Shown: positions 22,711-40,085 of the stretch, in pieces
Layout: each line of letters begins with the position of its first letter
Position numbering within the stretch: the stretch's first letter is position 1
Origin: Candidatus Omnitrophota bacterium
GTDB taxonomy: Bacteria; Omnitrophota; Gorgyraeia; 1-14-0-20-64-10
Assembly (NCBI GenBank): GCA_023248155.1
Contig: JAHFFE010000008.1
Span: 6,515-70,514, forward strand
Reading direction: 5' to 3'
Length of the DNA stretch: 64,000 nucleotides
The notes under the pieces: generated by a model
Databases searched by the model: none
What the model was told of the DNA's origin: nothing
Seen by the model: only the letters and a program-made list of their open reading frames with translations
Program-made: the position numbers and the translations under genes

Positions 22711-22791
22711 TCAGAAATAGCATAGAAGATTTTTACACAAAAACCGGTTCACGCATGGCATACTTAAAGTAGGTCAAGGGTAAAAACACCT

Positions 22792-22832
22792 TTCGCGGGG
22801 TCGCACCAGCTCTCCCCGCGGAAGTTTTTATT
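22792..22832 (+). terminator. Rho-independent terminator between the two giant genes.
   Basis: A 9-bp GC-rich stem (TTCGCGGGG...CCCCGCGGAA) with a 13-nt loop is followed by GTTTTTATT. It lies 82 nt after the stop of giant gene 1. Confidence 0.6.
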
Positions 22833-22898
22833 ACCCCTCTTTTTCAAGAGATAAGAACTTTTCGATAAAGCGGTTTAGTTGACCCAAAAGGGGGATTC

Positions 22899-25800
22899 AT
22901 GATCGTTCGCTTTAACCGGAAAACAGGGCAATCTTCCGAAGGAACTCCAGTTCCTGGCGAAGGCGTTTTACTTCCGGTCCAGCGCCCGCGGTTAAGACCG
23001 GTTCTGCGTTCGGTCGCGGCAGTCACGCTGGCGGCCTTCACGATCACTTCCATCGTTCCGTCCGTTTTCGCGCAAACCGTTCATTCGAAAGAAACACTGC
23101 GTCCGGTTCAAGAAGCGGAAGGCAATAATAAAGAAAAGGTTGGCGGCCTTGAAGAACGTCTGCGTGCTTCTGGTTCTGAACCGATTTCGGCTGATCCAGT
23201 ACTACTCACCCCGACTCCTTCAGTTTCAGCAGGCGGCCAAGGTGATGGACTCGCCACCACCACTAATTTCTGGGTTAACCGATCTGGAAGCCCTATTGCC
23301 GGGAAGGAAGAAGATTCCGCGGTCCGCGTTGATCGCCGCACTGCGCTGGCGGCAGGTTTATTGGGTACGGCAGCGGTAGCCACGGCGCTGACAGCGCCTG
23401 TTTCACTGCCGGCCCAGGATGTTACGCCACCTCAACCCAAGGTTGTTGCCGCTGCTCCGAAAGCTGCAGCGAAACCAGCCCCACGCCCTGTTCTTGTGGA
23501 ACAGATCACCAGTAATCTTGTCCAGAATGACAAGGGACAAATACAACTCGAAACCGTTTCTCGAGGGACACGGTCAGACCGGGTGATTGCTCCTCCTACG
23601 AAAGAGTCGCGCCATCCCATGATAGCTGCGGTCCAGGCCGTTAAAGCCACTTTGACCCGCGGTCAGGAGCTGGTCCGCTCGTTTCTCACGGGTCCTTCTG
23701 AAGTGATCCGCTGGTTCGCGGTCAAAAACCACGCGCGGTCGATTATTCCAAAAAATCATCCGAATGTCATTCTCTCTCTCAACGATTTCCGGCCGTTTAT
23801 TGATCAAGGCCCGGAGCGGGTTGCAGTGGTATTAAAAGCAATCGGTGCCGCGGCCAAAGCTCAGGGTTCCAAAGTATCGATCGCGCTGGATATTGGTGCT
23901 TTTGTCGATAACCGGGATTTCAGTGATTTGAAAACGCCGATCAGCGCTAACACCACCCGTGATTATCTGGTTCCATTTGTGACCGAAGCAAAACGGCAGG
24001 ACATCAAAGTGCTTCCTTACAGTTCCGACCGCGGCGTGATGCTGGATATCGGAAGTTACAAGCGCGAATTACAGGATGCCCTGCAAATGGGCTTTGACCG
24101 CGAAGCGATCGTGACCGACTGGGAATGGTGGGCGTCGCCTCCCGGTGTTGAGAATCTATGGGAAACACTAACGCTTAATAAACAGGATGACGCGAAGGCG
24201 CAACTGGCGCTTGAGTGGCTGAAAGCTCATCAGCAACTGCTTACCAGTGTGATTTCAGACAAAGAAATTCCGGTTACCGCCAAGCCCACTCAAATCTACG
24301 CATTGGTGAATCAGGATTTTGCGCAGGTGCTCATCAAGGCATTAGACGGTAAACCGTTGCCGTCACGGTTTCATTTGGTGGTGATGGCCTATAACACGCC
24401 TCGCGGCAAAGAGGCCGAGTTTGTTCAAGCAGCGCAGAAGTCTTCGGCCGACTTGACCGGCCAGAAAGCCAGCGGCTACGCGCTCAATTTTGAAAGGGAT
24501 GCCAGCCCGGATCAATCATTAAACGGTTTGGCTGTTGAAGGAAAAGTTGGTGAAACCGTTCAGCAGATTGCCGCGCAGGCCAAAACCGGCGGTGAACCGC
24601 TCTTTATGCATATTCCGTCGCATCGTGATCTGACCAGTTTAATGGAAACCGGCAAGATGGTGCCGGTGTTACCAGCCGATCAGGTTGAGCTGGCTCAAAC
24701 AACGGCTATTGCCTTGGGTAAGATGGTGCTCGGCGGCACACCCAAATCTCCCGAAATTATTCGCCGTTATTTACCAAGACCGGAAGATACCGCCACGGTG
24801 ACGAACCGAATTGCCGTGGAGCCGGTGACCCATGGTATTGGCTTTGGCACCACCGGTGTTGGTACTGTCGGGGCAGTCGGTCGCAATGTGGAAGCATGGA
24901 TGGGCAAGGGCGTCTGGTGGTTCCTGGATCCAGACACATTTATTTTGGGGCCGGAGGCCGGCTTGACCGTTTCTGCCATGAAAAAAATCGTCGGTACTCT
25001 GGTCAGGGGTGAATTGGAAACCGTCAGCATGGAATTGATCGTGACGCCGCTGGGTGAAGACGGCCGACCGTCGGGTCCGGCATTGCCGCCTATTTCAGTG
25101 ATGGGTGTTCCGGATCCGACCCGCGAACTCAAAGGGGCTCGTTACGACGCGCAATTGCGCGTTAAGCTGCGCCGGCCCGGCGAGCGCCTGGCGCAAAATC
25201 CTGAGAGCTGGCCGCTGATTAATGCCTCGATTGAGGCTGAAGTCGCTTTGGGCTATCCCGGCTACGGCCGCACGCCGCTGACCGTGTCGGAAGCGATCCA
25301 TATTCCTCCAGGGCGTGGCAATGAAACCGCTGAGGTGACGATTCCTCTGGGTGAAATTACTCCGACCATCAGCTTTTTTATTTTGCGCAGCCGCGATAGC
25401 CAGGAAAAAATCACCGGTTGGTATGGCCCCGTAAACCCGATGTATATGTCACAGTTCACCGATTATCTGCTCGACCAGAAATACAAAACGAAATGGGCTC
25501 ATCTGGAGACCGTCTGCGCCGATCCCAATACCAGTGCTCAGCTGTTGGCTGAAGCGACCGAAGAGATGAATCGGATGGGCGGGCATGTGACGGCGCTGCA
25601 GCTGGCGGTCGATCACCGGGGTGATCTGATGGTGCCGGTTTCAGTTGAAGAATACAAAGATGCCGCCTCCATGCGCGCACAATTTCAATCGCTGCGGGAG
25701 CATGGCGTAACCCATATTTCCGTGCGGGTTCCTGAGATCGAACAGAATGCCGATAAATATCTGGTTCAATACGCCGAAAAAGATATTTGGGGTGTCGATT

Positions 25801-28800
25801 ATAATGCGGCCCGGGACATCTTGGGAAGACAGGAACAGCAATTTTTGGAATTAATCCGTATTGCTCATGAAGCCGGGTTGAATGTCGGTTTGCAGCTTGA
25901 TGAAGCCGAGATTGACCGCCTCACCGATCCAAATCAGTCGGTTCGCGCAAAGGAGCGGTTGGAAAAGACCGGCTTGAAAGATCAATCGCACGGATTGGAA
26001 ATCATCCGGCTCATCGTCAAGGCCAACGAAGAGTTCCATTTCCAGCTTGATTTTTTTAACTTGAATCTTAAGAAGGGGTCCGGCGAAAGCCGTGTTCGTG
26101 CGGAGATACAAGCGGCCCGGGAACGGCGCGGCTCTCTGCAGTCCGATATGCAAAAGCTGATGGATATGCTCGATACATTGCTGGTTGAAACCGGAGACCG
26201 TGGTGGCCGTCCCACCGAATGGAACCAATATGCCACCCGTGTTTCAGTCAACAGCGTAACGCCTGATACCGCCCGTGAAATTTTGGAGACAAATCATACG
26301 GGTCTGGTTCAACGAGCCCAGCACCGTTATCCCCAGGCCTTGTTCCTGCAGGGAGGTTCTCTAAACGAAATCATTACCACGCTGAATCAGCGATTTCCGT
26401 CGCTGGTCAATTCTCAGGGTCAGGTCGATCCCCAATTACTGGAGGAGCTGATTCAAAGAATCAGGGTGCCTTCAACCACTGCTTTCCGCGCGGTCTCTGT
26501 TCCGGAAAATCGCATTGCTGAGGTACAACAGTGGGCTTCTACGCTGACCGACGAACAGATTCGCCAGTCTATCCAGAAGAAGGAAGATCGTGTCCGGTTT
26601 TTGCTTGCGGCCAGGGCCTGGGAAATTGGCATGGCTCAGGAACCGGTACTGGCGCGGTATCAAAATCCGATTGATCTGGCCTTTTTGGCAGCCCATGAAA
26701 TTCAGATGAACCGGTTGTTGACCGTCGGAGATACCCATCCGAAAGTAGTGATGCGGTCTTTGCCGACTCAGCAGATTACCGCCAGCGGCCAAGCGGTCAT
26801 TGAAGTGGAAATCAAGAACGAAGGCAATTTGCCGGCTCAATATATGACGATTCTCCATTTAATGGGTGAAACTCCTTCCGGGCGCCCTGCATGGCCGTTG
26901 GATGAGCCCCGTTTGGAGCGGTTTACGAAGGAAGTTATTTTAAAACCGGGCGAATCCCAGCGCGTACGGTTTGTCGTTGATGGAAATATCTTGCGCCAGG
27001 AAGGGCATGTCAACTTCCGCGTGCTGGCGCGCGATGTGAACACGCTCTTGCACAAGCCGGGCCAGGGCCTTGATATGGAAGAAGATGAAGAAGCGTTCGC
27101 CCGCGCCGAAGGAACTTTATATGTCACTCTGCCGCAGCGGTTGAAAGCGATCCCGGACCAAGCCCAGCGCGATGAAGCGATACTTGAAAATTCTTTCCAT
27201 GGGCTTCGACGGAGATTTGAGCGCGCGGAGGCACTGCGCCGCGAGCGGACCGGAGAATCATTTAATGATGCTGCCTATGCCCAGGGATACGGGGAGCGTT
27301 ATATGGAGTATATGGCCGTTTTTGCTCCGTATTACACAATGGGGATCAGAAAGGAAGGGACGGGATCCGGAACAATTCTTCGTTTGACATTCCAGCGCAC
27401 GGCCCAAACGCTTCAGGAACATTTGGAAGATGTGCGATCGGAGCAGCGGCAGCAATTGGAAACAATCGCTTTGCTTCCCGATCAGTCAGAACTTGCTACG
27501 GCCCGATGGCTGCGCAAAGGGCTCGAATATGGCATGAAAGCCGGTTTGGTGGCGTTGGCGATTGCGGCATTCAGAAATGTTCGCAGTTCCGCGCGTCGCG
27601 GGTATGAGGGTGCTGCTTTGGAGCAGTCGTTAAGTACAGGGGGTCTCGGGGATGGAACTCCCGTAGGCCGTTTCAGCCAATTTTTGGACATGAACACCGA
27701 ATGGTCCCATCGCGTTGAAGGAATGGGCGCACGCTGGACTCAGGATAGGGCTGGAAATCATCCGGAACAGGGGAAGGTGGCTCGCGCGATGCGCGCGACC
27801 GGCCGGTTTGTGATCGGCCTTCGCGATGATATTCAGGATCAAGCCATGCCGATCGTATCTCGTCAGCAAAGCCGTTTGGAGTGGATTCAGAAAATAGCTC
27901 CTAAGGTGGTTACCGGTGCTTTAGTCGTCATCGGTTCATTGGCGGCGTTGGGAGCCATCACGCTTCCCGCGGCCGGTATCGCGCTGGCTGTTCTTGTGGC
28001 CGCGGTTGTTCTGCTGGCGGTTCCGGTGATTGGACCCGTTCTTCAGCGGCTTATCTCGGTACTCTTTTTCCTTCCGCTTGATTTGGCCGCATGGGCTCCA
28101 GCTAATGGAGCGCTTCTCATACTGGGCCCGATTATTTTCTTCGCGATGGCTGCCATTGGCTTGTCCTTGATCGGCACCTTGTTGGGTGTCGCTGTAACCG
28201 TATTCTCCTGGCAGAGTATTGCAGTGGTTGCGTTAATATGGGCCGCGTTATGGCTCTACGATGGCGTTGGCCGAAGTCCTTACAGCGCGATCAGCTTTAC
28301 CTGGAGGATTGTGGGTGCTTTGGGAATCGGCGCCGTCGCGGCCGTCGTTGTTTTTGCGCTGACTTATATAATCTCGAACGCTTTGTTGTTCTGGTTTTTA
28401 GTCGGCGTTGTTTTCTTTTGGGCGGTTCGGGCTACCCATATTTTTACTTCCAGTCCGGCTCCGTTAATGGCCTATGCCGAATGGGTCTCTTCTTATCGGT
28501 TCCTGGTTCGGTGGGCAATTACCGGCCTGGTTATTTATGCCGGTGTTATGCTGGCGGCCGCCGCTTCGACGGTCATTATGCCGATATTACTAGGCGCGGT
28601 TCCGGTAACGGGTATTGCCGCTTTAGCAACTTCCGGTTTGGGTGTCATCAGCCTGTTGGTGATCGGAACGGTTTTACTGACCTATCTTCTGGGGTCGCAT
28701 TATCAACTTTATGGAACAGTTCCGTTCTTACGCAACCATCCCATTTTATTGTGGACGGCTCGTGTCGCGACAGCCGCGGCGCTGGCGGCAGCGATACCGT

Positions 28801-31800
28801 GGCTGTTGGGAGCGGTTCCGGCATTCTTTGCCTCGATGTTGCCGGCGTTTATGGCCGGGTTATTGTTGCCGGTTACTCCAACGGTCGGGACCTATGTGAT
28901 GGGTCTGGTTATTTTCGGCCGCGCGGCCGGATTAATCTGGAGAGGAATTGATTACGCGACTTTCAGCCGGCCGGCCAACCAGCCGATCAGTGTTACGATT
29001 TTACGCGCGTTGTTCCATGCCGTGGTGCTGGGTGTGGGTGCTGCCATGCTGCTCCCGCTGGGGCTTTTGGCCATCAAGGGAATCAGCATTGCCGGTGCCG
29101 GCTGGATTGTTTTCTGGTTGATGATCGTTCCTAGCGCGGCGCTCATCCTTGCGGCCCTTTGGGATTGGTCTGCCACGCCCCGTTATTGGCTGCAGGAGCA
29201 ATTTGAGCGGGAACGGGTTCAGCAAGCGCAACTGATCGGCGCGATTCAGGTCTTCGAAGGATCCGGCGCACAGCGGGTTTCTGCGGCTAATCTGCATCAG
29301 ATGGCTTTACCGCAACTGCGCGCGGAGTTTGCAACCATGGCCGCTCAGCCGGGGCAAAATCTTTCTGCCTCGGATCGTACCCGTTTGCTTTCCCGATTCC
29401 GTCTGCGCCAGTCGCCCGACCAGCTTCCGCTGGTGAATCCGGATCTGGTTGTTTTGCAGGCCGCCTGGGCCGATGCTGTAGCGGCTACGCATATTGACTG
29501 GCATCACGGCGTGCCGCAGCTTCCTTCATTTATTTCCGGAAATCAGGCCCCCACGCAGATTCAGCAGATGATTCAGCTGACGCCGGACCAACAGCGGGTA
29601 TTGAACTGGTATTATTGGCGGCATTTGGCCGAACGCGATGCCGATACCGAAGTGCGCCGGCTCAGCACCGAGCAAGGATCCGTCGTCGGATTGGCCGATC
29701 TGTCACTGGCCGATCAGGAACTGGCTGTGACGCCCTACTTCAACTGGTATATGAACCGATTCAAAGATACTATTCTTAACCAGGATGAAGGAACCACTCT
29801 GCGTACTTTGGGCGGCTTTTTGTGGACCTCTGATTTGCAGCATTTGGTTGGCCGGTTCCGCCAGGATGACAGTTTGGCAGTGGTTATGCCCGCGCTTATT
29901 TTGAGTTTGGAATACGCGATGGACGGTCCCTCGGTCATCGGCGGCGCGCAGATCCGTAACGCCAACAGAAATTATGGAGTATTCGGCGTGGTTGTTGTGA
30001 CCGTGGTGATGTGGGCCCAGGTCGCGTTGATGAACATTGCTGTTCCGCTGGGTTTTATCGCTTCGATGGTGAACCGATGGGGCCGGTCAAAGGTTCAGGG
30101 CGGCAATGTGCTGCATACGCTGCGTGCTTCCGCGGACGCCGGCATGGAAGGTTATCAAAAAGCGTTCTGGTATGTAATTTTAGTGCTGGGCCGCTGGCTG
30201 CAGGGTCTGCTCTTTACCTTGATGGAAGTGTATCTGGGCCGATGGGTCGGCCGGCGCGATCTTGAAGAGTATCAGGCCACCCGTGTTTTTGAAGGATCGG
30301 CTGATGGCGATGGAACACTCTCGAACCGGGTTCGTACACTTCTGCATGAAAACACACTTAATTCACTGGTCGAGGCGCATTACGCCGGTTTGATTGGCGA
30401 AGACAACTCACTATTCGATATGGGTCGGTTCGCGTTTCCTTCTCAAATGCGAAATGTTCCCTGGCAATTAAGAGGGGATGGTCCCGGCATTCAGGATGCC
30501 GAAGCGTTTGGTGACCGTTCCAACAACCAGCAACTGCCCGGTACCATTGAATGGCGTACCGAGGGCGGTATTGGCGGCGGACATGCCCGCGTGGCGGTCC
30601 GTTTTGAAATTATCGACAGCATCGATTTATCCGGCGCCGGATTAGAGGAAAGTAAAGTAGGTACCCAATCAAAACTGGTTTTGGAGCGGCTGGCTGACGG
30701 TACCGTTCGTATCCGTAAACAGGGTGAATCCCTGCGATATCTGGTCCGCTTAAATAAGGATCAGAAAGCGTCGCTGGATCAGCGGTTGGCGCAGAACAGC
30801 AATAACTGGAAAGCTACGGCCCGCTTTTTTGAAACCGAAAGAGATGCCGCCATTGATCAACTAAAAGCGCGGCAACGAGAGGTTAGGAATCTGGAAAGGG
30901 CAGGCGCTCCTGATATTCAAATCAGAATTGCCAAAGATGCGGTAGAAGCAGCTAACAAACAAGTGAAATTTGTCTCGCCTATTGCGGACGGTCTTATTTC
31001 GGAGAACGGCCGGTATCTCTATGCTTTTCAAGATGGATCTGTGACGCGTGTTTTTGTAAATGGACAAGATCAGGAAACGCTATTGACGAAAAACCGGCAA
31101 CGCCGACTTTCCACCGAGCCGGGTAAAGTCTATGTTCAAGCACCCACCGGACGCACCAAGGGTGAAAATGCCGGTGCTGGCCTTGCGTATGCCATCGGTT
31201 TGGTGGAGCCGCGCCTGCAATTAACGCGGGACGGCAATTCCTACCGCGTCAATCTGCCGTTTAGAACGATGGAGGAGGAGCTTTTCCCGGAATTGGGCGA
31301 GGCGCGGCATGAAATCCAGGATCATGGGGATCGCCAGCACGGCGTGCGCGCTCATCAGGGTGTTGAAGCGGCACGGGTTTTAAATCAGGAAAACGATGAG
31401 CGTCTGCGCAGGCATCGCGGCATCGAGTCGTCGATTTCCGCGCTTCCTCAAGGTGAGTTTGGGCATCACCAGGTGCGCGACCGTATCGGGCAACGCGGGC
31501 AATGGCTTTTAAACGCCGCGGCTACATTGCTGCGTTGGGAGCGCGATCGTGATCTTGATGAAAACAATTACCGGTCTGGGTTAAATCCGCTTCGCTGGAG
31601 TTTTAAGAAAATCGCGTTGTTAATCGTCCAGGTAGCAGCTTTCAGTGCCGTGCTTTGGCTGGTTTTGAACGGTATGGTTGCTTTAACCTCTCTTCAGGTG
31701 ATTGCCGGGGTATTGTTTGGCATCACGTTGCTGGCTACCCAGTTTAACTGGTGGTGGACGCTCAAAATTATTGCTGGTTTCACGGCGCTTTATTTCGCAT

Positions 31801-34800
31801 GGCCCTGGGGATTGGCAATGGCGATTACCGGGCCTACCTTTGCCGCCTTTTTGTGGGGCTACATCAAGCCGATCTCATTTATCGGAAATGTTCAGCATAA
31901 TCGTATTCAGGGTATGCGCGGGCATTACCAATCTGAGATGATCGAGTCGGCATTTGACCGGCTTGAAGCACGGATAGGCTTGGCGCAGATGGGCCCGGTG
32001 CTGGATGCTTCTCAACAGCAGTACGACGCTCAACTGCGTGACGGTTTGGCGCTGATCCAGCAGACCCCGGCACTGCAGACTTTGGCTGAACTCTATCACC
32101 GCGTGATTGGTCCGGAAGAGCTGACTGTTCAGCGGCCCTGGTGGAATCTACTGCGGTATATTCCAATCCCAGGATTTCCACGGCGCCCGATAACCAATAT
32201 ACCGTTTCTGCGGGGCGTAATGCAGGTGGAGCCCACTTTGCGGCGGGTTATCCGGCAGGTAGAAACAGGGCCTTCTGCAGGGCAGGAAGAGTCGGGCGGC
32301 CCAGGTAGTCGTACCGCGGCTCTTGCCGATATCGAACGGCTTTTGGTTCGCGAGATGCGCGATTTTTCGCCGGCTCAGCGGCGCGCTGTTTTTGAAGCGC
32401 TTCGCTGGAACACTGCGTTGCAATTCGCGGCGATTGGCAACCGGGCTATTTCCGATCAATATTCCCGCAGCCGTGATCCGGAAGTAACGCGCATGGGCGA
32501 TGTTAACTCACAGTTCGGCGTGGAAGGGCAGGATCGTTTAACCCGGTTGCAGGCCCAGCAGCAGTTACTGAACGGCCAGTTAATTCAAACGGCCTATCCA
32601 TTTGCGGGCAACCGCTCCTGGACGCGCAGTTCCGACGCGGCCATTTATGGCGGTATTCCGGCACCCTCTTTGACCTACAGTGGCTCATCCAATAATCTGT
32701 TGAATGCGCTGGCACGGGGCGCCCAAAATGGCGGTTTTATTATTGAACGAATGGCAATCAATTCGACGGCCAATGGGGATGTTCTTTATATCGATTCCGC
32801 TCTCTTGGCTAATGATTACGGAAATACAAGCGGCATTGACAAAGGCCGCGGCCTTTTAATTCTGGTCCATGAGGCGGGGCTTATTACCGACGAACAGTAT
32901 GAAACAATGTCCAGCCGTTTGAGCGATATTCAGTTTCAAGGCGGGAATGTGGGTGCCGCGCTTAACACATTTTTAAGAAATGGTTCTGATTTAGCGGGAA
33001 TTGTGGTGGTCGGCACTACCTGGACCTATAATCGCGACAGAGCAACCCAGTGGAAGCCGGAATTAAAGGTCTCCGGTGATTTTAAATATACAGCCCCGTC
33101 TGCCGGTGCAACAGAGCAGCAGAAGCAGGAACAGAAGATCAAAGACGAAGCAGCCCTCAATGAGATTTTTGATAAAGCGTCTCAATCAATTCGCCGGATT
33201 AATCCGCTGCGGGCCGCACTGGATCAGAAATCGGCCGGTCAGACGCTGTCCAATTATCTTCTGGAGAACACCTCGCTTCAGCCCGATCTTGAAGTTTTGC
33301 AGTCTGATTTGAACGCGCAGAGTGAAGAGCTGAATTCAGTAATCAACACCGAGATTTCCGCAGAACAGCTTAATCAATACTATGATGACCGGCAGGCGCG
33401 CGAGGGCGACCGGGAAGTTTTTCGGATCACAGCGCAGAATGTGAATTGGCGGGCGATCGGTTTTTCGGGCAATACGCTGCAGGAAGCGCTGGCCGAATTG
33501 CGGCAATCGATCGCGCACGATGGGACGATTTCTTTGACGCCGCGCCGCAATCTGCTGACCTGGGCAATGGATCTGTTTAATTTGCGAAATCAATCGTACA
33601 GCCGTGAAGTGGTACTGCTGCAGTTGTTGTTTGGCGCCAACCAAGATCAGCTGTTGATGCGCGGCGGCCGCGTGGTTGGTTTGCGCTGGAGCAACCTCGA
33701 CAGCCATTTTGATGCCTCGCAATGGCAGTTTGCCGTCGGACCGTATCTCTGGCCCGGCAGCACGATGGGACGCGTCGCTCTCTGGATGCGGCGCGGCAGA
33801 ATGCATCAGGCGCCGCCGATTCCATTTTTGGAAGCGGTCCGGTTGCTGGAAATGTCTCCCAACGCGGCGGTGGCTTCCGGCTTTAACCGGCTTCCGACCG
33901 ATGCGTTCAGTTTGCCTCAGTTGCTGACCGAGGACGGCCGGCATGGATCGCTGAACCGGTTAACACCGACGCTGAACCCGACGATGAACGCCTGGAATAT
34001 GCACAAAATTCCGTTTATGCAGCTTCAACTGTTGCTGCGCAAAGGGGACAAATCGACCCAGCGTGCCGTGCAATATTTTGCCGGTCTGGCGATTGAACAG
34101 TCATTTCAGCATTTGTTTGATCATCCGTTATTTGCCGGCGTTCACCCCGATTATTTAAATCATCTCTCCAATACGATGAGACAAACATTCGGTTTGCAGG
34201 CAGTCTTGCGCGATGAAGTTTCCACGGCCGGCGCGCATGGCGCCGGAACATTCTCTTACGGTCTGACCGGCTATACCGGCTCCCGCCTCTCCGGTATTCG
34301 GGTGGGGCCGTATCCGCCGGGGCATGTGGCGGCCTACTGGATTTATCGCGAATATCAGGCGCTTGACGAACAGTGGAATGGTTTATTTAATGCAACCACC
34401 CGCCAGCTGCAGCGCGAGGCTGTTTTTGCGCGTACCAACAGTCCGGTTCCGCCCGATTCCTCCGCCGATAGTGTCCCGTTGATTTATCAGGGAGATGTGG
34501 TGGATCCATGGACTGTCTTGGCAACGGCCGGGGCTCAAATCGAACAGACTCGGCGTGCTTCGCGCAGCCCGCATACGCCGGCTGAGAATCCGTTGTTGCT
34601 GGGTCCGTTGGTCAGTCCTGAAGGCCGTTCGAATGCCATTGAAGAAGCCGCGCGACAAGTCAGAGCATCGCTGGCGCAGCCGGTAACCGCGGCGACGGTT
34701 GGAACAATTCGTCTGGCTGAAGAACCGCCGCCAGCTCCTGTGGTTCCGATGACGGGTACTCTTCCGTCGGAATCCGGCCTGGAAGAGCAGACAGCCGTCC

Positions 34801-35396
34801 AGCTGTTTGTTCCGTCTACAGTCACCGCATTACCATCTGAGCTGGTAACAGTGACGGTGGCTCCTGAGACGGTGGCGGAATTGTCCACGAGCACAACCAT
34901 TACCACAGCGCCGTCCTCGACAAGCGTCACCGTGACGGCTCCGGTTGGAACTTTCCAGCCGGGACTGTTTGACAGCTTAAAAGCTTTGTCTGAAATTCGT
35001 GTCGCGGTGATTTCGGCCGAGACCGCGTTGAATTATCCGGAGTTGTCAGGTATTGCCGGAAAATTAAAGCAAATCCGAAACACGAATGCCTACCTGCTGG
35101 TTTTGCCGAATGATCCGAAGCAGTTGGAAGACGCGTTGATGGAACTGATGGAAAAATCCGAGGTCATTGTTCAAAGCTATGGCTCAGCGGACGATTTGTC
35201 GCTGAAAGATTTTAGAGATGCGGTTAGTCCGTTCTCCTCGATTCATTTAGGGAATCCTCAGCCGGTGAATGGCTCCTTCCCGATAGTGTTGAGCCAAATC
35301 TTGGGCGCTCTGGCCGGTATTGCTCCGGAATCGGTTACCGAAGCCGAGCTGGCTGGCGTCGAAGAAGCTGTTTTTGGTACGCTGACCAGCGCGTAA
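22899..35396 (+). CDS. Giant polytopic membrane protein (4,165 aa). N-terminal signal/anchor. Block of about 16 TM helices encoded at ~27900-29200. Second cluster of 4-5 TM helices at ~31600-31880. Large soluble domains on both sides. Shared C-terminal domain.
   Basis: ATG at 22899 is preceded by an AAGGGGGA RBS 5 nt upstream, and there is a single 12.5 kb ORF. The N-terminus LRSVAAVTLAAFTITSIVPSVFAQT is signal-peptide-like. Many 18-25 residue hydrophobic segments occur (VVTGALVVIGSLAALGAITLPAAGIALAVLVAAVVLLAVPVIG, and so on). The C-terminus (AVISAETALNYPELSG...) aligns with the C-termini of neighbouring genes. Confidence 0.85.
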   Translation: MIVRFNRKTGQSSEGTPVPGEGVLLPVQRPRLRPVLRSVAAVTLAAFTITSIVPSVFAQTVHSKETLRPVQEAEGNNKEKVGGLEERLRASGSEPISADPVLLTPTPSVSAGGQGDGLATTTNFWVNRSGSPIAGKEEDSAVRVDRRTALAAGLLGTAAVATALTAPVSLPAQDVTPPQPKVVAAAPKAAAKPAPRPVLVEQITSNLVQNDKGQIQLETVSRGTRSDRVIAPPTKESRHPMIAAVQAVKATLTRGQELVRSFLTGPSEVIRWFAVKNHARSIIPKNHPNVILSLNDFRPFIDQGPERVAVVLKAIGAAAKAQGSKVSIALDIGAFVDNRDFSDLKTPISANTTRDYLVPFVTEAKRQDIKVLPYSSDRGVMLDIGSYKRELQDALQMGFDREAIVTDWEWWASPPGVENLWETLTLNKQDDAKAQLALEWLKAHQQLLTSVISDKEIPVTAKPTQIYALVNQDFAQVLIKALDGKPLPSRFHLVVMAYNTPRGKEAEFVQAAQKSSADLTGQKASGYALNFERDASPDQSLNGLAVEGKVGETVQQIAAQAKTGGEPLFMHIPSHRDLTSLMETGKMVPVLPADQVELAQTTAIALGKMVLGGTPKSPEIIRRYLPRPEDTATVTNRIAVEPVTHGIGFGTTGVGTVGAVGRNVEAWMGKGVWWFLDPDTFILGPEAGLTVSAMKKIVGTLVRGELETVSMELIVTPLGEDGRPSGPALPPISVMGVPDPTRELKGARYDAQLRVKLRRPGERLAQNPESWPLINASIEAEVALGYPGYGRTPLTVSEAIHIPPGRGNETAEVTIPLGEITPTISFFILRSRDSQEKITGWYGPVNPMYMSQFTDYLLDQKYKTKWAHLETVCADPNTSAQLLAEATEEMNRMGGHVTALQLAVDHRGDLMVPVSVEEYKDAASMRAQFQSLREHGVTHISVRVPEIEQNADKYLVQYAEKDIWGVDYNAARDILGRQEQQFLELIRIAHEAGLNVGLQLDEAEIDRLTDPNQSVRAKERLEKTGLKDQSHGLEIIRLIVKANEEFHFQLDFFNLNLKKGSGESRVRAEIQAARERRGSLQSDMQKLMDMLDTLLVETGDRGGRPTEWNQYATRVSVNSVTPDTAREILETNHTGLVQRAQHRYPQALFLQGGSLNEIITTLNQRFPSLVNSQGQVDPQLLEELIQRIRVPSTTAFRAVSVPENRIAEVQQWASTLTDEQIRQSIQKKEDRVRFLLAARAWEIGMAQEPVLARYQNPIDLAFLAAHEIQMNRLLTVGDTHPKVVMRSLPTQQITASGQAVIEVEIKNEGNLPAQYMTILHLMGETPSGRPAWPLDEPRLERFTKEVILKPGESQRVRFVVDGNILRQEGHVNFRVLARDVNTLLHKPGQGLDMEEDEEAFARAEGTLYVTLPQRLKAIPDQAQRDEAILENSFHGLRRRFERAEALRRERTGESFNDAAYAQGYGERYMEYMAVFAPYYTMGIRKEGTGSGTILRLTFQRTAQTLQEHLEDVRSEQRQQLETIALLPDQSELATARWLRKGLEYGMKAGLVALAIAAFRNVRSSARRGYEGAALEQSLSTGGLGDGTPVGRFSQFLDMNTEWSHRVEGMGARWTQDRAGNHPEQGKVARAMRATGRFVIGLRDDIQDQAMPIVSRQQSRLEWIQKIAPKVVTGALVVIGSLAALGAITLPAAGIALAVLVAAVVLLAVPVIGPVLQRLISVLFFLPLDLAAWAPANGALLILGPIIFFAMAAIGLSLIGTLLGVAVTVFSWQSIAVVALIWAALWLYDGVGRSPYSAISFTWRIVGALGIGAVAAVVVFALTYIISNALLFWFLVGVVFFWAVRATHIFTSSPAPLMAYAEWVSSYRFLVRWAITGLVIYAGVMLAAAASTVIMPILLGAVPVTGIAALATSGLGVISLLVIGTVLLTYLLGSHYQLYGTVPFLRNHPILLWTARVATAAALAAAIPWLLGAVPAFFASMLPAFMAGLLLPVTPTVGTYVMGLVIFGRAAGLIWRGIDYATFSRPANQPISVTILRALFHAVVLGVGAAMLLPLGLLAIKGISIAGAGWIVFWLMIVPSAALILAALWDWSATPRYWLQEQFERERVQQAQLIGAIQVFEGSGAQRVSAANLHQMALPQLRAEFATMAAQPGQNLSASDRTRLLSRFRLRQSPDQLPLVNPDLVVLQAAWADAVAATHIDWHHGVPQLPSFISGNQAPTQIQQMIQLTPDQQRVLNWYYWRHLAERDADTEVRRLSTEQGSVVGLADLSLADQELAVTPYFNWYMNRFKDTILNQDEGTTLRTLGGFLWTSDLQHLVGRFRQDDSLAVVMPALILSLEYAMDGPSVIGGAQIRNANRNYGVFGVVVVTVVMWAQVALMNIAVPLGFIASMVNRWGRSKVQGGNVLHTLRASADAGMEGYQKAFWYVILVLGRWLQGLLFTLMEVYLGRWVGRRDLEEYQATRVFEGSADGDGTLSNRVRTLLHENTLNSLVEAHYAGLIGEDNSLFDMGRFAFPSQMRNVPWQLRGDGPGIQDAEAFGDRSNNQQLPGTIEWRTEGGIGGGHARVAVRFEIIDSIDLSGAGLEESKVGTQSKLVLERLADGTVRIRKQGESLRYLVRLNKDQKASLDQRLAQNSNNWKATARFFETERDAAIDQLKARQREVRNLERAGAPDIQIRIAKDAVEAANKQVKFVSPIADGLISENGRYLYAFQDGSVTRVFVNGQDQETLLTKNRQRRLSTEPGKVYVQAPTGRTKGENAGAGLAYAIGLVEPRLQLTRDGNSYRVNLPFRTMEEELFPELGEARHEIQDHGDRQHGVRAHQGVEAARVLNQENDERLRRHRGIESSISALPQGEFGHHQVRDRIGQRGQWLLNAAATLLRWERDRDLDENNYRSGLNPLRWSFKKIALLIVQVAAFSAVLWLVLNGMVALTSLQVIAGVLFGITLLATQFNWWWTLKIIAGFTALYFAWPWGLAMAITGPTFAAFLWGYIKPISFIGNVQHNRIQGMRGHYQSEMIESAFDRLEARIGLAQMGPVLDASQQQYDAQLRDGLALIQQTPALQTLAELYHRVIGPEELTVQRPWWNLLRYIPIPGFPRRPITNIPFLRGVMQVEPTLRRVIRQVETGPSAGQEESGGPGSRTAALADIERLLVREMRDFSPAQRRAVFEALRWNTALQFAAIGNRAISDQYSRSRDPEVTRMGDVNSQFGVEGQDRLTRLQAQQQLLNGQLIQTAYPFAGNRSWTRSSDAAIYGGIPAPSLTYSGSSNNLLNALARGAQNGGFIIERMAINSTANGDVLYIDSALLANDYGNTSGIDKGRGLLILVHEAGLITDEQYETMSSRLSDIQFQGGNVGAALNTFLRNGSDLAGIVVVGTTWTYNRDRATQWKPELKVSGDFKYTAPSAGATEQQKQEQKIKDEAALNEIFDKASQSIRRINPLRAALDQKSAGQTLSNYLLENTSLQPDLEVLQSDLNAQSEELNSVINTEISAEQLNQYYDDRQAREGDREVFRITAQNVNWRAIGFSGNTLQEALAELRQSIAHDGTISLTPRRNLLTWAMDLFNLRNQSYSREVVLLQLLFGANQDQLLMRGGRVVGLRWSNLDSHFDASQWQFAVGPYLWPGSTMGRVALWMRRGRMHQAPPIPFLEAVRLLEMSPNAAVASGFNRLPTDAFSLPQLLTEDGRHGSLNRLTPTLNPTMNAWNMHKIPFMQLQLLLRKGDKSTQRAVQYFAGLAIEQSFQHLFDHPLFAGVHPDYLNHLSNTMRQTFGLQAVLRDEVSTAGAHGAGTFSYGLTGYTGSRLSGIRVGPYPPGHVAAYWIYREYQALDEQWNGLFNATTRQLQREAVFARTNSPVPPDSSADSVPLIYQGDVVDPWTVLATAGAQIEQTRRASRSPHTPAENPLLLGPLVSPEGRSNAIEEAARQVRASLAQPVTAATVGTIRLAEEPPPAPVVPMTGTLPSESGLEEQTAVQLFVPSTVTALPSELVTVTVAPETVAELSTSTTITTAPSSTSVTVTAPVGTFQPGLFDSLKALSEIRVAVISAETALNYPELSGIAGKLKQIRNTNAYLLVLPNDPKQLEDALMELMEKSEVIVQSYGSADDLSLKDFRDAVSPFSSIHLGNPQPVNGSFPIVLSQILGALAGIAPESVTEAELAGVEEAVFGTLTSA

Positions 35397-35564
35397 AAAG
35401 AATTTTTCCTCAAAAAATTTTCCATCCGGTTTTTCTCGCCAGTTGTTTGCTTTCACGCTATAATAAATAAACAAGAACCTGACCCTCATCTCGTCGGCCA
35501 GGAGTACAATCGGCTGCCGGGGTGGGGGAATTTCTTCCGGCGCTTTTAAAACAGATTGCGATTG

Positions 35565-38500
35565 ATGACCTTAAACCGTTTTTTGCGGCAAACCGCCTTA
35601 TTATTACTGCTTTCATTTTTCGCGCAGTCTGGATTTCCTCAGCCGCTGCTTGAGCAGGCGTTACGCGTTCAAAATCCCGCACAGACGGATGTGGCTGCTC
35701 GCCTCAAGCAATCACTGGATGCCGGCGCCGAAGAAAAACCGGTAGATCCGGGGCAACCGGAGGCACCAAAAAGAATTGTTATTAACACTGGAAATCTTAA
35801 TATTCCCGTTTCACCCAATACCGAATTTGTCATTAATGCCGATAATGTAACTTTGGTTCCAGCAGGATCTTCTCAGCCGCCACAAGCTGCTCCACTACCG
35901 TCTGCGCTTCCCGTTGAACCGCCGCGCGCGCTTCCAGCCCCGGAGGCATCTTCCAGTTCAAAAACTGTCGAACCAAAAACTGTCATTCCCGATTCGATCG
36001 GGAATCCGGATCCTCGCTTGCGCGAGGATGACACGCCTCGAGAAACGGTTTCTCGGCCGTCCATTCCATCCGCGCGTTCGGCTCCAAGTTATTCTCCAAC
36101 GCGTCCGTTGAAACGACTCTTCTTAGTTGCGACCGGCAGTCTGTTGTTTATTACCGCACTGACGCTAGTCTTCTCAATCAATCAATCCGGCAAAAGCTGG
36201 AAGGAGTTTTTCTTTCCTTCGGTCACCCAGATTGTCCCAGAACAGATCGAATCGGATATCAACCCGCCGGAACAAATTGATTTCGTGCCGGCTGAATCGG
36301 CATCCGTTTTCCCGGACGAGGGAACATTTTCCGGTGATCGGAAAGTGATTCAGGCCACTTCCGAGCAGGCTGGGGGAGTCGCGCATAATCCGAACGAAAA
36401 ACTTTCGCCGACTGAATTTGAACAGCAGTTTTATGGACACCAGATCGCTCTTTTGCAGGGACTCGCCGACGCGCAAATTCCGCGCCAGCCGGATGTGCAG
36501 GGAATTTTTAGCCGGCTTCGGATCGCGTCGGTTCCCGGCGAAGATTCCGGACGCAACCGGATTAAAGCGGCGCTGGCCCGTGACCAGGCTGAGGTTGATC
36601 AGGCCGCCGCCGCAGTAATCAAAGTGTTGCAGCAGGAGCAGTTTACAAAAACGGCGTCCCGTTTTAACCGGGTTGAAATAACGCCGGCCACTTGGAAGCA
36701 ATACCAGCAAGCGCTCAACAGCTGGTTTGCCGCGCAGCAGCGTCAGCTCAAGCGACTGGTCGAGGTTCTTGCGGAATTTGTCGAGAAAGACAAGCAACTG
36801 CTTCCGGGAGATAATATCCTGCTGAGGGATTATTACCTTGATTTGACGGCGCACCGGCTGGCTGAAATCTCCGTTGAAGAGTTTCAGGAAAGCCGCCGCC
36901 TGCATGATCTAATGATCCGGCTGGGCGTCGAATTGCCGTTTTCAGCGCTGGAATTGCCGGAGGGACTCGGATATGGCCCCTCCATGGTGCCGGCCGGCCC
37001 GGTTCCACCCGATCAGCTTACCCCGGCCGTTGAACGGCCTGAGCTTCTGCAAAAAACATTGGGCTCCATGCATCTTTTGCTGGCGGCCCGCGTGAAGCGG
37101 ATTGAGGCCCGGCTCGCATTTCTTGACTGGGAGATCAAGGCATACCGTGAAATGATTGGCAAAGACCCCCAATCTAGAACCGCCGAATACGACCGTTGGA
37201 ACACGGAACTAAAAATCACATCCCGTCTTTCTTTAGTGGCTCAGCGCCGCCGGATTCTCGCCCAGCAAGATTACCTCGCTGTGACCGGATTCCTTTTACA
37301 AAACCAGGGGCAAACCCGGGTTGACTGGCAGGCCGCTCCGGCTGCCATAAAAAAATTCCGGGATCAATTGCGCAATGAAGGGAAACTTCCGGAGCAGGTT
37401 GCCTCTGTTTTTCAGGTTTTGTTTGAAAGGGCTCAGAGCCGTCTGCGTGATGCCGAAAAAATAGAATTCTACGAACGGGTTTTCTTTTATACCGGCGGCA
37501 CCCGGGATGCCGTTTGGCGTGACGCTTCCGGCAAGCGCGTTTTCGGTTCCTACGCGTTTACCGGCGGAATCGCATACCTCGATTGGAAAGTCCGACAAGA
37601 ACAGCGTAATCAGCAGCAGATTGAGCGTGATCAGGGTAAAGTCGCTGATCAATTTGAATTACGATTGGCCCTGCAGCGCCGGCAATTAGCCCAACTGGAG
37701 TATGAGCAGGCCGTTTCTGATTTTAGCATGGCCGGCCTGCGCCGTGTTTTGGGGATTCCGACCGGTGCTGGGTCGAGCGGATTAACCCGTGCCGCCCCAC
37801 TCGTGCGCGAGCCGGGCACCGTAGCTCTTTTTTCGGAGCTGGGTGATTTAGGTGAAGTTGCCGATGGGCTTGATTTGTCTGACCGGATGTTAACAGCCGC
37901 GGAACGGCAGACGCTGACCGTTTATGGACTGCCGCAAGATTTGCCTGAACCCGCCCGTAAAAAAGCGGCGGCAACGATGGTCGCGCAGTCGCAGAAAGCG
38001 GCGGCGATTGCCATTCGCGCGCTCTGGCAGCAGCGGATTTGGGCCGCGCAAGAGGCCGATATCGCCCGCCGGGTGGAACTGTCGGAGCTGGAAACTGCTT
38101 CTGATAAGTATCTGGACGCGGTCTATCAGGAAGAACTCAACAGCGTCCGCATATTTGAAATGCGCCGGCTGACTGCCGAGCTGTTGATGGAAGGGTCGTT
38201 AACGCTCAATCAACTGTTGGATTTGTTTAGAATACCGCTTGCCTATCGTCAGGACCCCGCTCATTCAAACCGGTGGTTTGTTTTTTCAAACGATGCTGAT
38301 CTTCTTGATTTCTTTGGTTTAAGCCGCTGGGATTTGAAAGCCAGGGTAGGCGCTTCTGATCCGGCAGAGTACCAGCGGTTGAGCCGGCTTCATGATGAGT
38401 CGGTTCAGCTGGCGATCGTGGCTGGCCGGTATACAAACGGCAATCGGATTGATGCCAAGGCGCATCAGACGGAAATTTTCGCGAAATATAAAGCAGGCAC

Positions 38501-39932
38501 CGGTTGGGATTGTGAAAAGAACAGCGCTGAGATTGCGGGACGGCAATGGATCGATGGTTCGATGACAGAACTGTTAAAGAATAACAACCTTCAGCTGGCA
38601 CAGGGGATGCCGTTGTTTCCGGCGAACCGGCCCGTTCCATCGGCGGTACCATCCGTGGAGGATCTGACCGGGCTGTCTTACCGGGGGATTCCGGAATCTC
38701 CGGGTTACGGCGGATCGGTTATTCTGGACGGCGCGAGCGTTTCGCTGACGGGCGGGACTTATCAACTGTCGATGGCCGGTATCGTTTCCGCCCTGCCTGT
38801 ACCGTTGCAGGATTATCAGGTTAAAGAACATCCGCTAGGTCAGCGGTGGGTTCCGCCGGAGCGGCTGCAGCGGGTTGTTGTCCATGACAGCAACAATCCT
38901 CTGGCCGCCGCGCCTTCGGAAACCGTTTTTGTGGTTCAGCAGGGGCCCGCCGGCAGTCCTTTCCTTGGCAACGGGAAGTACACCGTTGTCAGACCCGGTC
39001 TTTTACCGATCGATCCGCGCGTGGCCTCCGCGCCGGTTCCTGGCGTACGTGCTTCATGGGACCCTCAAGCGAAACAATGGATTCTGCCGGATCGGGTTGA
39101 AGATCGCCAGGTGATCTATTTTTATCCGGTACGCGAATTACAGGTCTTGTTTGAAAACGGCAAGTGGATTCCCCGAGTGAATTTAATAGGAATTATTCCA
39201 CAGATGGTTTCGTGGGAAGAGGCGGGCCGGTTGGCTCAAAACCCTGAGAGGGCTTTGGGGCCGAACCGGACCGTTTTGAAAGTGGGAGATTACGTAAGAG
39301 ATCCTCAAACCGGAAAACGATATGTTTCTTCGAATGGGCAGGGAGGTTTTTTCCAATATCAGTTGACGATTCACCGATATTTGAATTCGCAGGGAGCCGC
39401 CGAGCAGGAGATCGATTTTGTTTCTGAGGCTATTCGCGATACGGATCCTCCGATTGCTCTGAAGCCCGAGAGGTTATCTTCCGGTTCGGGACTGGAAGAA
39501 TTTTTAGGACGGCGGATTGCCGAAGCGCCCGGGTTTCAAGCGGTTGTGATTTCTGCCGAGACAGCGGCCGATTGCCCAGAGCTGGCCGGCGCTGAAGAGA
39601 ATACTTATCAATGGGGGAATCTGCAGCTGATAGTTTTGTCGGAGGAGCCTGCTCAATGGTCTTCCGTAATCACCGGATGGTTATCGCAGCCGAACCTAAA
39701 TTTGACGCTTTACGGTCGTGCCGGCGATCAGTCTCTCTCAGTACTTGGACAGATGCTGGCTGGTGCCGAAGAATCGATTGCGATCCAGGGACCGTACCCA
39801 CCGACGGGACAGAGCTTTTCAACCCTCTTTAAGATGATTCTGGCAAATTTGGCTGGCCTGGAAGAAGCAACTATTTCTGATGCTGATTTGAACCAGGCCG
39901 CAGAGCTGCTCGGATTAGGTAAATACGTATAA
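35565..39932 (+). CDS. Large secreted/anchored coiled-coil protein, paralog A (~1,455 aa). Signal peptide, TM anchor, Pro-rich spacer, conserved N-module, beta-rich C-domain, shared C-terminal domain.
   Basis: The ORF runs 35556..39932; the ATG at 35565 gives MTLNRFLRQTALLLLLSFFAQSGFPQP (signal peptide). A second hydrophobic segment is LFLVATGSLLFITALTLVFSI. The module WKQYQQALNSWFAAQQRQ... is shared with the genes at 40086 and 46417. The C-domain VDPRVASAPVPGVRASWDP...YFYPVRELQVLFENGKWIPRVNL is ~55% identical to that of the 46417 gene. Confidence 0.8.
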   Translation: MTLNRFLRQTALLLLLSFFAQSGFPQPLLEQALRVQNPAQTDVAARLKQSLDAGAEEKPVDPGQPEAPKRIVINTGNLNIPVSPNTEFVINADNVTLVPAGSSQPPQAAPLPSALPVEPPRALPAPEASSSSKTVEPKTVIPDSIGNPDPRLREDDTPRETVSRPSIPSARSAPSYSPTRPLKRLFLVATGSLLFITALTLVFSINQSGKSWKEFFFPSVTQIVPEQIESDINPPEQIDFVPAESASVFPDEGTFSGDRKVIQATSEQAGGVAHNPNEKLSPTEFEQQFYGHQIALLQGLADAQIPRQPDVQGIFSRLRIASVPGEDSGRNRIKAALARDQAEVDQAAAAVIKVLQQEQFTKTASRFNRVEITPATWKQYQQALNSWFAAQQRQLKRLVEVLAEFVEKDKQLLPGDNILLRDYYLDLTAHRLAEISVEEFQESRRLHDLMIRLGVELPFSALELPEGLGYGPSMVPAGPVPPDQLTPAVERPELLQKTLGSMHLLLAARVKRIEARLAFLDWEIKAYREMIGKDPQSRTAEYDRWNTELKITSRLSLVAQRRRILAQQDYLAVTGFLLQNQGQTRVDWQAAPAAIKKFRDQLRNEGKLPEQVASVFQVLFERAQSRLRDAEKIEFYERVFFYTGGTRDAVWRDASGKRVFGSYAFTGGIAYLDWKVRQEQRNQQQIERDQGKVADQFELRLALQRRQLAQLEYEQAVSDFSMAGLRRVLGIPTGAGSSGLTRAAPLVREPGTVALFSELGDLGEVADGLDLSDRMLTAAERQTLTVYGLPQDLPEPARKKAAATMVAQSQKAAAIAIRALWQQRIWAAQEADIARRVELSELETASDKYLDAVYQEELNSVRIFEMRRLTAELLMEGSLTLNQLLDLFRIPLAYRQDPAHSNRWFVFSNDADLLDFFGLSRWDLKARVGASDPAEYQRLSRLHDESVQLAIVAGRYTNGNRIDAKAHQTEIFAKYKAGTGWDCEKNSAEIAGRQWIDGSMTELLKNNNLQLAQGMPLFPANRPVPSAVPSVEDLTGLSYRGIPESPGYGGSVILDGASVSLTGGTYQLSMAGIVSALPVPLQDYQVKEHPLGQRWVPPERLQRVVVHDSNNPLAAAPSETVFVVQQGPAGSPFLGNGKYTVVRPGLLPIDPRVASAPVPGVRASWDPQAKQWILPDRVEDRQVIYFYPVRELQVLFENGKWIPRVNLIGIIPQMVSWEEAGRLAQNPERALGPNRTVLKVGDYVRDPQTGKRYVSSNGQGGFFQYQLTIHRYLNSQGAAEQEIDFVSEAIRDTDPPIALKPERLSSGSGLEEFLGRRIAEAPGFQAVVISAETAADCPELAGAEENTYQWGNLQLIVLSEEPAQWSSVITGWLSQPNLNLTLYGRAGDQSLSVLGQMLAGAEESIAIQGPYPPTGQSFSTLFKMILANLAGLEEATISDADLNQAAELLGLGKYV

Positions 39933-40085
39933 AGTCAGATAATTTTTTAATGATATTTTTGAGGCAAAAGCCATCGGTCTATGGCATACTTACACTAGAG
40001 CGATTGAATAAAAAGTTTCGTGGCGGAAGAACGGGTTTCGCCGCGAGATTTTTATTTAGCTCCCTTTTTTCAAAGATCAAAATAG

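Follow-up and report, generated by a model that had tools for sequence, protein, structure and literature searches.

Planctomycetota and Omnitrophota are characterized by giant genes, almost none of which has an assigned function. In Omnitrophota, giant proteins predicted to contain tens to hundreds of transmembrane (TM) helices have been reported to be common (bioRxiv 10.1101/2023.11.21.568195; 10.64898/2026.06.07.730766), and giant genes have been described as typical of Planctomycetes (PMC5177795). We analyzed a stretch of 64,000 nucleotides (nt) from Candidatus Omnitrophota bacterium (assembly GCA_023248155.1, contig JAHFFE010000008.1, positions 6,515 to 70,514 of the forward strand), hereafter the window, which contains a gene, designated B, encoding a protein of 4,165 amino acids (aa) with a large block of predicted TM helices. 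The other genes of the window are designated A, which precedes B, and C to P.

We compared this locus with the closest described systems. Like the Omnitrophota giants (the 'archaeovorins' and others; bioRxiv 10.1101/2023.11.21.568195, 10.64898/2026.06.07.730766), B is a very long open reading frame (ORF) with many predicted TM helices between large unannotatable regions, and carbohydrate-related genes nearby and rapid divergence are also found at the B locus. However, no sequence relationship to these giants was detected, the one relative with a name comes from Planctomycetia, B is about 4 thousand residues long compared with 10–147 thousand, it contains neither a SecA_DEAD nor a peptidase domain, and no type II secretion system or type IV pilus genes flank it within the window; thus, B shares the TM-richness of the SecA-type giants but not their SecA domains. 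The giant genes of Planctomycetes are clustered and are presumed to encode surface or structural proteins of unknown function, as is the case for A and B; those proteins carry recognizable adhesion or carbohydrate-binding InterPro domains, whereas A and B carry none (PMC5177795). The window locus forms a compact conserved module, in which a membrane giant is paired with a larger soluble giant and accompanied by secreted proteins resembling carbohydrate-binding modules (CBMs), and in which several proteins share a cluster-specific N-terminal leader. In the literature searched, we found no description of a polytopic giant with a leader of this type. We consider that B shares the general style of the Omnitrophota and Planctomycetes giants without detectable homology to them, and that the leader motif is its most original element.

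Gene B and its family

Gene B is a single uninterrupted frame with an ATG start, just 5′ of which lies a good Shine–Dalgarno-like sequence, AAAAGGGGGATTC (coordinates are given in Table 1). An independent assembly of the same sample in ENA (L010) also contains B, and one single-nucleotide polymorphism (SNP), V1817I, is the sole difference between this assembly and the window across 30.9 kb of overlap. Moreover, B is collinear end to end with three homologs, P0002, P0003 and P0004. Because the frame is intact, the second assembly carries the same gene and the homologs are collinear over their full lengths, B is neither split nor an assembly artefact; it is a genuine single gene. A preliminary description of this stretch had likewise read one 4,165-aa ORF here, with the caveat that sequencing errors might split it, and the frame proved to be single.

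To delimit the family, we performed an exhaustive HMMER scan of 1.84 billion cluster representatives with residues 1641–2840 of B as the query. B's own cluster and three others were recovered, represented by P0002 (3,875 aa), P0003 (5,275 aa) and P0004 (3,792 aa), which align with B over the full length at ~30% identity; the four clusters comprise 8 sequences among about 15 billion proteins. A domain-profile pattern scan of 185,579 species-representative genomes yielded one further fragment (L002), on a 4.9-kb contig of a metagenome-assembled genome of an 'uncultured Planctomycetia bacterium', which is the only named relative. In a metagenome collection, profile-derived patterns recovered P0003 and P0004 again and nothing else, and single-sequence scans of genome and metagenome contigs for B returned nothing, so that only the profile-derived patterns matched. 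We also found no relatives of B in plasmid, phage and viral collections, and PADLOC gave no match for B or for C–F; an origin from a defense system or a mobile element is therefore unsupported.

The family architecture is found in full in B: the leader, an N-terminal region of ~1,400 aa, a TM helix, a loop with the motif HPEQGK, the TM block, a domain with the motifs MPALILS and AVPLGF, a TM pair, a domain with the motif SGFNRLPTDA and a C-terminal module, with an A-type giant encoded upstream. Known families gave no comparable match. Whole-protein hmmscan of B against Pfam and NCBIfam returned nothing at E ≤ 1 beyond two noise matches, phmmer against all PDB sequences returned no match at E ≤ 1, and region-by-region profiles built from the four family members found nothing significant in the PDB. 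Judged by these searches, the B family is new, extremely rare and fast-evolving, and matches no described family. One member, P0003 (nt 10001–25828 of L009), is extended at its C-terminus by ~1,400 aa, in which long stretches of coiled coil and two PP2C phosphatase domains are found.

Predicted membrane helices of B

Hydrophobic segments were located by Kyte–Doolittle hydropathy and charge-free-run analysis, followed by manual helix parsing. The main hydrophobic block (residues 1668–2089) was parsed manually into 15 helices connected by loops mostly of 1–2 residues (the longest 21), and a lenient uniform cut-off gave 13 helices. When the Hessa insertion scale was applied to non-overlapping 19-residue windows with a cut-off of ΔG ≤ 1 kcal/mol, 11 windows of B passed (9 within residues 1671–2088 and 2 within residues 2905–2945), compared with 0 in the 7,544-aa neighbor A and an average of 0.66 in shuffled B. 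The block is also apparent at the nucleotide level, where nt 28001–30000 have an AT skew of –0.29.

These results agree with the preliminary description in most respects. Its run of at least 15–16 consecutive helices at ~27900–29200 corresponds to the block, for which we count 13–16; its second cluster of 4–5 helices at ~31600–31880 was recovered at residues 2904–2990 with 3–4; and its spacings of ~1,650, ~800 and ~1,170 aa compare with 1,667 aa before the block, 814 aa between the clusters and 1,175 aa after them. Its view that polytopic proteins of this size are exceptional was overstated, given the TM-rich giants reported to be common in Omnitrophota. It also lacked several hydrophobic segments, at residues 35–58, 145–172, 2358–2391 and 2423–2444, and a weak one at residues 1547–1558, which is a clear TM helix in the homologs. 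The loop that follows this last segment contains the invariant residues E1623, Q1624, G1625 and K1626.

We then compared the block among the orthologs. It occurs at the same place in all four proteins, with an aligned length of 363–461 residues and with indels, and by a uniform lenient criterion it contains 13 helices in B, 13 in P0002, 11 in P0003 and 8 in P0004. Conservation is weaker in the block than in the soluble parts and is lowest in the second half of the block, where gaps reach ~40%. Few positions of the block are invariant; besides Q1716, N1736 and R1803, most of these are Gly, Pro or Trp, and no conserved acidic residues were found in the short loops of the block. An alignment of its two halves with hhalign (probability 0.0) gave no indication of an internal repeat. 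An additional two-helix hairpin precedes the C-terminal conserved domain in P0002–P0004, and is lacking in B and in the fragment L002.

The preliminary description had proposed that B could be the channel or platform of a putative system and had pointed to transporter folds. Permeases of the RND/MmpL, ABC-2 and LptFG types resemble B in combining a multi-helix membrane domain with large extramembrane domains. However, RND/MmpL proteins are recognized by a family profile (ACR_tran, MMPL or Sterol-sensing) and by 12 TM helices arranged as a 6+6 duplication with two large extracytoplasmic loops inside, and ABC-2 and LptFG proteins by a family profile together with an ABC ATPase partner; judged from its sequence, B shows none of these properties. 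The helix block of B is not interrupted by the large domains, which lie outside it; a 6+6 repeat is absent, and the number of helices is not fixed in the family. No RND, MmpL, ABC-2, LptFG or other Pfam or NCBIfam match was obtained for B at E ≤ 1, nor was a PDB match, and the block profile retrieved only SLC45A4 from the PDB, with E = 0.4 over 72 residues. Neither B nor its homologs contain Walker A, HExxH or similar motifs, no SecA-related Pfam match was found in B, and scans of the remaining ORFs of the window detected no ATPase family. The channel half of the earlier proposal is thus unsupported, whereas a platform or anchor is compatible with the data, and so is a multi-gene module, with A upstream in all four loci and the same downstream genes on one related contig.

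Because the block is weakly conserved, varies between 8 and 13 helices, has no internal repeat, and combines loops of 1–2 aa with few conserved polar residues, and because neither a transporter match nor a nucleoside triphosphatase motif was found, the data point to an anchor rather than a channel. Such plasticity would be expected of an anchor or scaffold, and not of a transporter core with fixed geometry. We therefore tentatively favor the reading that B anchors an envelope or surface assembly specific to its lineage, or serves as the platform of this assembly in the membrane, with the soluble domains of B doing the specific work. Within this lineage-restricted envelope module of giant proteins, B would be the subunit embedded in the membrane; its block of 13–16 helices would act as a broad membrane anchor or assembly platform that holds large soluble domains at the membrane, rather than as a channel of fixed geometry for solutes, and the family-specific function would reside in the conserved soluble domains at residues 2200–2560 and 3555–3890. 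Together with A, the leader-bearing proteins would form a structure of the cell envelope or surface, possibly one that binds or processes glycans. If B is merely a fast-evolving anchor, the reading as a novel transporter is removed, and a family invisible to all current domain libraries is documented.

An N-terminal leader common to B and its neighbors

A common leader was found at the N-termini of B, D, E, F and all B homologs, and a variant of it in C. Its elements follow one another in a constant order: a basic stretch, a hydrophobic helix of ~20 residues that ends in P-x-G-x-A-x-A-like residues (H1 in B), the motif (T/A)LRxxQ ~8–10 residues past the helix, and the motif (A/S)GLEExL after 8–15 mostly acidic residues. 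The motifs start at nt 40197 in D, 44434 in E and 46543 in F, and the variant in C lies at about nt 35650–35730. In the B family, the H1 sequence is conserved in all homologs (invariant A40, A41, T43, F47, T50, P54 and A58), as is the motif region (invariant T66, R68, Q71, G83, L84, E85, E86 and L88). Inspected by eye, the H1 segments of B–F and of the homologs appear signal-like, with a basic n-region, an h-region of ~20 aa and a P-x-G-x-A-x-A-like end; the sequence conservation of H1 is atypical for a plain signal peptide.

The leader is also N-terminal on the genes directly downstream of B homologs in L008 (from nt 14490) and L009 (from nt 25936), although these genes show no BLAST similarity to C–F. 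A regular-expression scan in six frames of the window and the related loci found the arrangement confined to the N-termini named above, and no described sorting signal in Pfam or NCBIfam matched it. We infer that the proteins with this leader share a single route of export or processing.

Further copies of the GLEE motif occur inside these proteins. Each giant protein contains 2–5 copies, compared with 0.03–0.3 expected from shuffled sequences (~20–30 fold over), and none occurs in G–P. Copies outside the leader lie in linkers of B (nt 30639–30650 and 34776–34787) and A (aa 1160 and 6195), in C (aa 1312 and 1434), D (aa 1395) and E (aa 577), and in the B homologs as well. These internal and C-terminal copies may mark sites of processing or docking; to connect them with the co-encoded PDZ/TPR protein L would be purely speculative.

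A second segment follows 30–130 residues beyond GLEE and consists of basic residues, a hydrophobic helix rich in A, G and T, and an A-x-A/Q-like end. In B, this segment (H2) reads DRRTALAAGLLG..., that is, DRRTAL, the A/G/T-rich helix and an LPA-Q end. Equivalents are DRRTVLKAGA in E (aa ~96–118), QRRRWPLVV in D (aa ~82–105) and SRRSFLKVAG in P0002; another lies at aa ~185–210 of C, and that of F is weaker. These segments resemble signals of the twin-arginine translocation (Tat) pathway, and the SRRSFLK segment of P0002 scored 18.5 bits against Pfam TAT_signal, below the cut-off of 22.7. Canonical Tat signal peptides are N-terminal and combine an S/T-R-R-x-F-L-K motif with a weakly hydrophobic h-region and an AxA site, whereas H2 of B is internal, behind a conserved pre-region of ~100 aa. 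If H1 were a cleaved Sec signal, the twin-arginine (RR) motif would end up outside; if H2 with its RR motif were the export signal, the conserved region from H1 to GLEE would have to stay cytoplasmic.

The extended signal peptide region (ESPR) has the layout n1-h1-n2-h2-c. It is the nearest analogy to the B leader: both are bipartite leaders with two hydrophobic segments on very large proteins, which in the case of the ESPR are autotransporters and two-partner secretion proteins (PMC2805444). However, the B leader is unrelated in sequence and has no Pfam ESPR match, its spacer is 30–130 aa long and contains TLRxLQ and GLEE, and no beta-barrel translocator is present. A further parallel is offered by dual Sec/Tat polytopic proteins such as the actinobacterial Rieske protein Sco2149, which reportedly contain an internal twin-arginine motif before a later hydrophobic segment. 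By analogy, B is a predicted membrane protein with an internal twin-arginine motif ahead of a hydrophobic segment. In proteins of the Sco2149 type, an even number of Sec-inserted helices is said to keep the RR motif cytoplasmic; in B, by contrast, a single hydrophobic segment precedes it, and a Tat role of H2 is putative.

The leader motif could serve to find all clients of such a route genome-wide. If it genuinely directs sorting or processing, it would represent a novel targeting signal of bacteria of the Planctomycetes–Verrucomicrobia–Chlamydiae (PVC) group, and would give an entry to the question of how cells insert or export proteins of 4,000–9,000 residues.

Soluble domains, neighboring genes and competing explanations

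The N-terminal soluble region of B consists possibly of alpha/beta modules and a beta-sandwich. Its profile matched eight glycoside hydrolase family 3 (GH3) beta-glucosidases in the PDB, all of which aligned, through their Fn3-like C-terminal domain, with the same ~60 residues of this region (E 0.02–2.5), and, at residues ~930–1060, the designed TIM barrel Octarellin and IMPDH (E 0.1–1.4). These weak matches are suggestive only; they fit an alternating beta/alpha sequence and are no proof of family membership. A D-x-E-(P)-W motif is conserved in the first alpha/beta module (consensus ITDxEPW).

The domain at residues 2200–2560 was the best-matching stretch in the exhaustive HMMER search. Conservation in it is the second-highest in the family, at residues 2290–2450, with the motifs MPALILS, AVPLGFxASMxNR, DAGxxGY and GRWLxG. 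The most conserved domain is that at residues 3555–3890, with 40–50% identity compared with ~30% overall and with the motifs SGFNRLPTDA, NAxNxHK, LRKxD and GAGTxSYG; it has no PDB or Pfam relative. AlphaFold2 models built from four-sequence alignments had a mean predicted local distance difference test (pLDDT) score of 35.9 for residues 1640–2560 and 36.4 for residues 3555–3890. Besides the insertion listed in Table 1, B contains a second one at nt 32937–33038 (aa 3347–3380), and both are missing from all homologs.

The ~120-aa C-terminal module of B is common to the C-termini of C and P0004. By blastp, the modules of B and C are 31% identical (E 4e-7 to 5e-11), and in a small database the C-terminus of B gave E = 5e-11 with C and 1e-7 with P0004. 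P0002 and P0003 carry a second variant that resembles the A-like giant of L006 (6e-8 and 3e-5), E and F form a further subgroup, and so do A and the other A-like proteins. The idea of one C-terminal module for all of A–F was considered and rejected; only pairwise subgroups were found, with cross-group hhalign probabilities of ≤ 22%. Repeats of B domains were found neither in A nor in C–F.

Table 1. Positions of the features discussed, in nt of the window
Feature	Position (nt)	Strand	Remarks
Giant A	1–22710	+	at least 7,544 aa, 5′ end beyond window; frame open from base 1; soluble, no TM windows
Hairpin and U-tract between A and B	22790–22833	+	GC-rich; –21.9 kcal/mol, z = –5.6 vs shuffles
Gene B	22899–35396	+	4,165 aa; L010 copy with 1 SNP; homologs P0002, P0003, P0004
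H1 signal-like helix	23001–23072	+	aa 35–58; basic stretch before, P-x-x-x-A-like c-region at end
Leader motif	23094–23162	+	aa 66–88; TLRxxQ, 11 residues, GLEExL
H2 Tat-like segment	23331–23414	+	aa 145–172; DRRTALAAGLLGTAAVATALTAPVSLPA
N-terminal soluble region	23415–27503	+	aa 173–1535; possibly TIM-barrel-like alpha/beta modules and beta-sandwich
Weak hydrophobic segment and HPEQGK loop	27516–27899	+	segment aa 1547–1558, then conserved ~110-aa loop
Main TM block	27900–29165	+	aa 1668–2089; about 13–16 predicted helices (hydropathy, Hessa scale); present in all homologs
Conserved middle domain	29496–30578	+	aa 2200–2560; hydrophobic helices aa 2358–2391 and 2423–2444
B-specific insertion	30609–31100	+	about aa 2571–2734; internal AGLEE at nt 30639–30650
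Second TM cluster	31608–31868	+	aa 2904–2990; 3–4 predicted helices (2 in homologs)
Most conserved family domain	33561–34568	+	aa 3555–3890
C-terminal ~120-aa module of B	34995–35351	+	common to C-termini of C and P0004
Small alpha/beta C-terminal modules	B 34995–35351; C 39534–39890; A 22300–22707; E 45976–46398; F 51187–51612	+	
C, D, E, F	35556–51615	+	paralogous 690–1,730-aa proteins, B-type leader; no Pfam match
G–K	within 51669–59722	+	five signal-peptide proteins, CBM30/CBM9/CBM11-like beta-sandwich domains
L, M, N	within 51669–59722	+	L, PDZ and TPR; M, small HAMP-like membrane protein; N, small FG-GAP/Lsa25.6-like
nagB (gene O)	59812–60579	+	glucosamine-6-phosphate deaminase; TIGR00502, 323.9 bits vs cut-off 236.9; conserved 3′ flank of module

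An A homolog lies directly upstream of every B homolog, with 26–31% identity over up to 2,600 aa. The A-like giants have at least 8,782 aa in L006 (31% identity over ~2,600 aa; the ORF seems to be truncated at the end of the contig), at least 4,939 aa in L009 and at least 859 aa in L008. A itself has no Pfam match, and in the PDB it gave only insignificant ApoE-like helical matches. Downstream of B, C–F are paralogous (C and F, 49% identity over 256 aa; E and F, 68% over 141 aa). The 68-kb contig of L006 has the order A-B-G-H-I-J-K-L-M-N-(epimerase)-nagB and passes directly from B to G; from this comparison, C–F are an insertion or expansion specific to the window organism. The order of G–N is also the same in L004, at 40–60% identity, and G–N and nagB lie downstream in both L006 and L004. 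Between the window and L006, identity is 82% for nagB, 40–60% for G–N and 27–31% for A and B (49% for the best domain of B), so that A and B evolve far faster than their surroundings. Only 9 Cys residues occur in the about 17,000 aa of A–F (3 in the 7,544 aa of A, none in D and F), compared with about 0.9–1.3% in G, H and P; such scarcity is typical of exported or surface proteins. Because the neighbors include CBM30/9/11-like proteins, two of which (among G–K) also have weak choice-of-anchor-J matches, and because nagB is present, a surface or glycan context is suggested. The amino-sugar context of nagB may relate to the CBM-like proteins.

Several points weigh against B as an anchor or platform. 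No single simple topology accommodates both H1 and the RR-containing H2, and neither of the two models, each with a pLDDT of ~36, allowed a fold to be assigned to any domain of B. The better-conserved first ~230 residues of the block could still form a channel, and the PP2C domains of P0003 suggest a cytoplasmic C-terminus and possibly a signaling role. The N-terminus of A lies beyond the window and its export is putative, glycan capture rests on weak CBM-type matches in the neighbors, and family scans found no secretion-system or pilus genes in the window.

An unlikely but wider possibility is that A, B and the leader-bearing proteins constitute an undescribed protein-sorting and assembly system, in which the leader and the C-terminal docking module would mark clients, and B would be the platform or even the translocon, to build a giant envelope structure. 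The molecularly uncharacterized fiber or crateriform apparatus of planctomycetes is a candidate for this structure.

We consider it quite improbable that A and C–F are exported by a new, dedicated secretion route with B as its translocon or channel in the inner membrane. The strictly conserved adjacency of A and B and the large helix bundle of B are in favor of such a route, the near absence of Cys in A–F is compatible with export in an unfolded state, the leader could serve as a recognition signal, and the window holds no other candidate membrane machine. However, B bears the same leader as its presumed substrates, the TM block is its least conserved part and varies in helix count, no similarity to any translocon family was found, no energizing motif occurs in B or its homologs or was detected as an ATPase in the other window ORFs, and no outer-membrane component was identified.

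It is similarly improbable that B is an enzyme that acts at the membrane in the metabolism of envelope polysaccharides or peptidoglycan, in which case the N-terminal modules and the C-terminal domain would be catalytic and the block would tether the protein or bind lipid-linked substrates. The profile matches (TIM barrels and the Fn3-like GH3 domain), although weak, are mutually consistent, and the D-x-E-(P)-W motif, the CBM-like neighbors and nagB downstream fit this function; nevertheless, all of these matches lie above E = 0.01 and below any curated threshold, B has no GT-C, Wzy or glycoside-hydrolase family match, and the short loops of the block lack conserved acidic residues.

We are equally doubtful that A and B are fast-evolving surface proteins that, by analogy with the Omnitrophota giants, mediate adhesion to particles, hosts or prey, with the block as a passive anchor and without assembly with G–N. 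The low identity of A and B (~27–31%) beside nagB and G–N is in line with this explanation, as such divergence is typical of exposed proteins engaged in arms races, and giant TM-rich proteins beside carbohydrate-active genes provide precedents. However, no adhesin-type repeats or domains (Ig, cadherin, dockerin or beta-helix) were detected, B is predicted to have much of its length between TM segments instead of forming a single long ectodomain, and the gene order with G–N is conserved. Finally, the view that B is artefactual, being either the product of a chimeric assembly or a decaying pseudogene whose frame is open by chance, to which its being known from metagenomes only might lend weight, is effectively excluded by two independent assemblies that agree to 1 SNP over 30.9 kb, by three collinear homologs of 3,792–5,275 aa with open frames and by conserved motifs along the whole length of B.

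A few minor features of the locus were also noted. Together, nagB and the gene after it, which encodes a DUF4954/left-handed beta-helix protein, lie at nt 59812–62548. The hairpin between A and B may act as an intrinsic terminator or attenuator inside the module; in a promoter and terminator consensus scan, in which counts equaled those of shuffled sequences, this hairpin was missed owing to its loop size. Small ORFs lie between the A-like and B-like genes at nt 9885–10004 of L006 (39 aa) and nt 9685–9915 of L009 (76 aa), and in the window the corresponding gap holds the hairpin instead of a small ORF.

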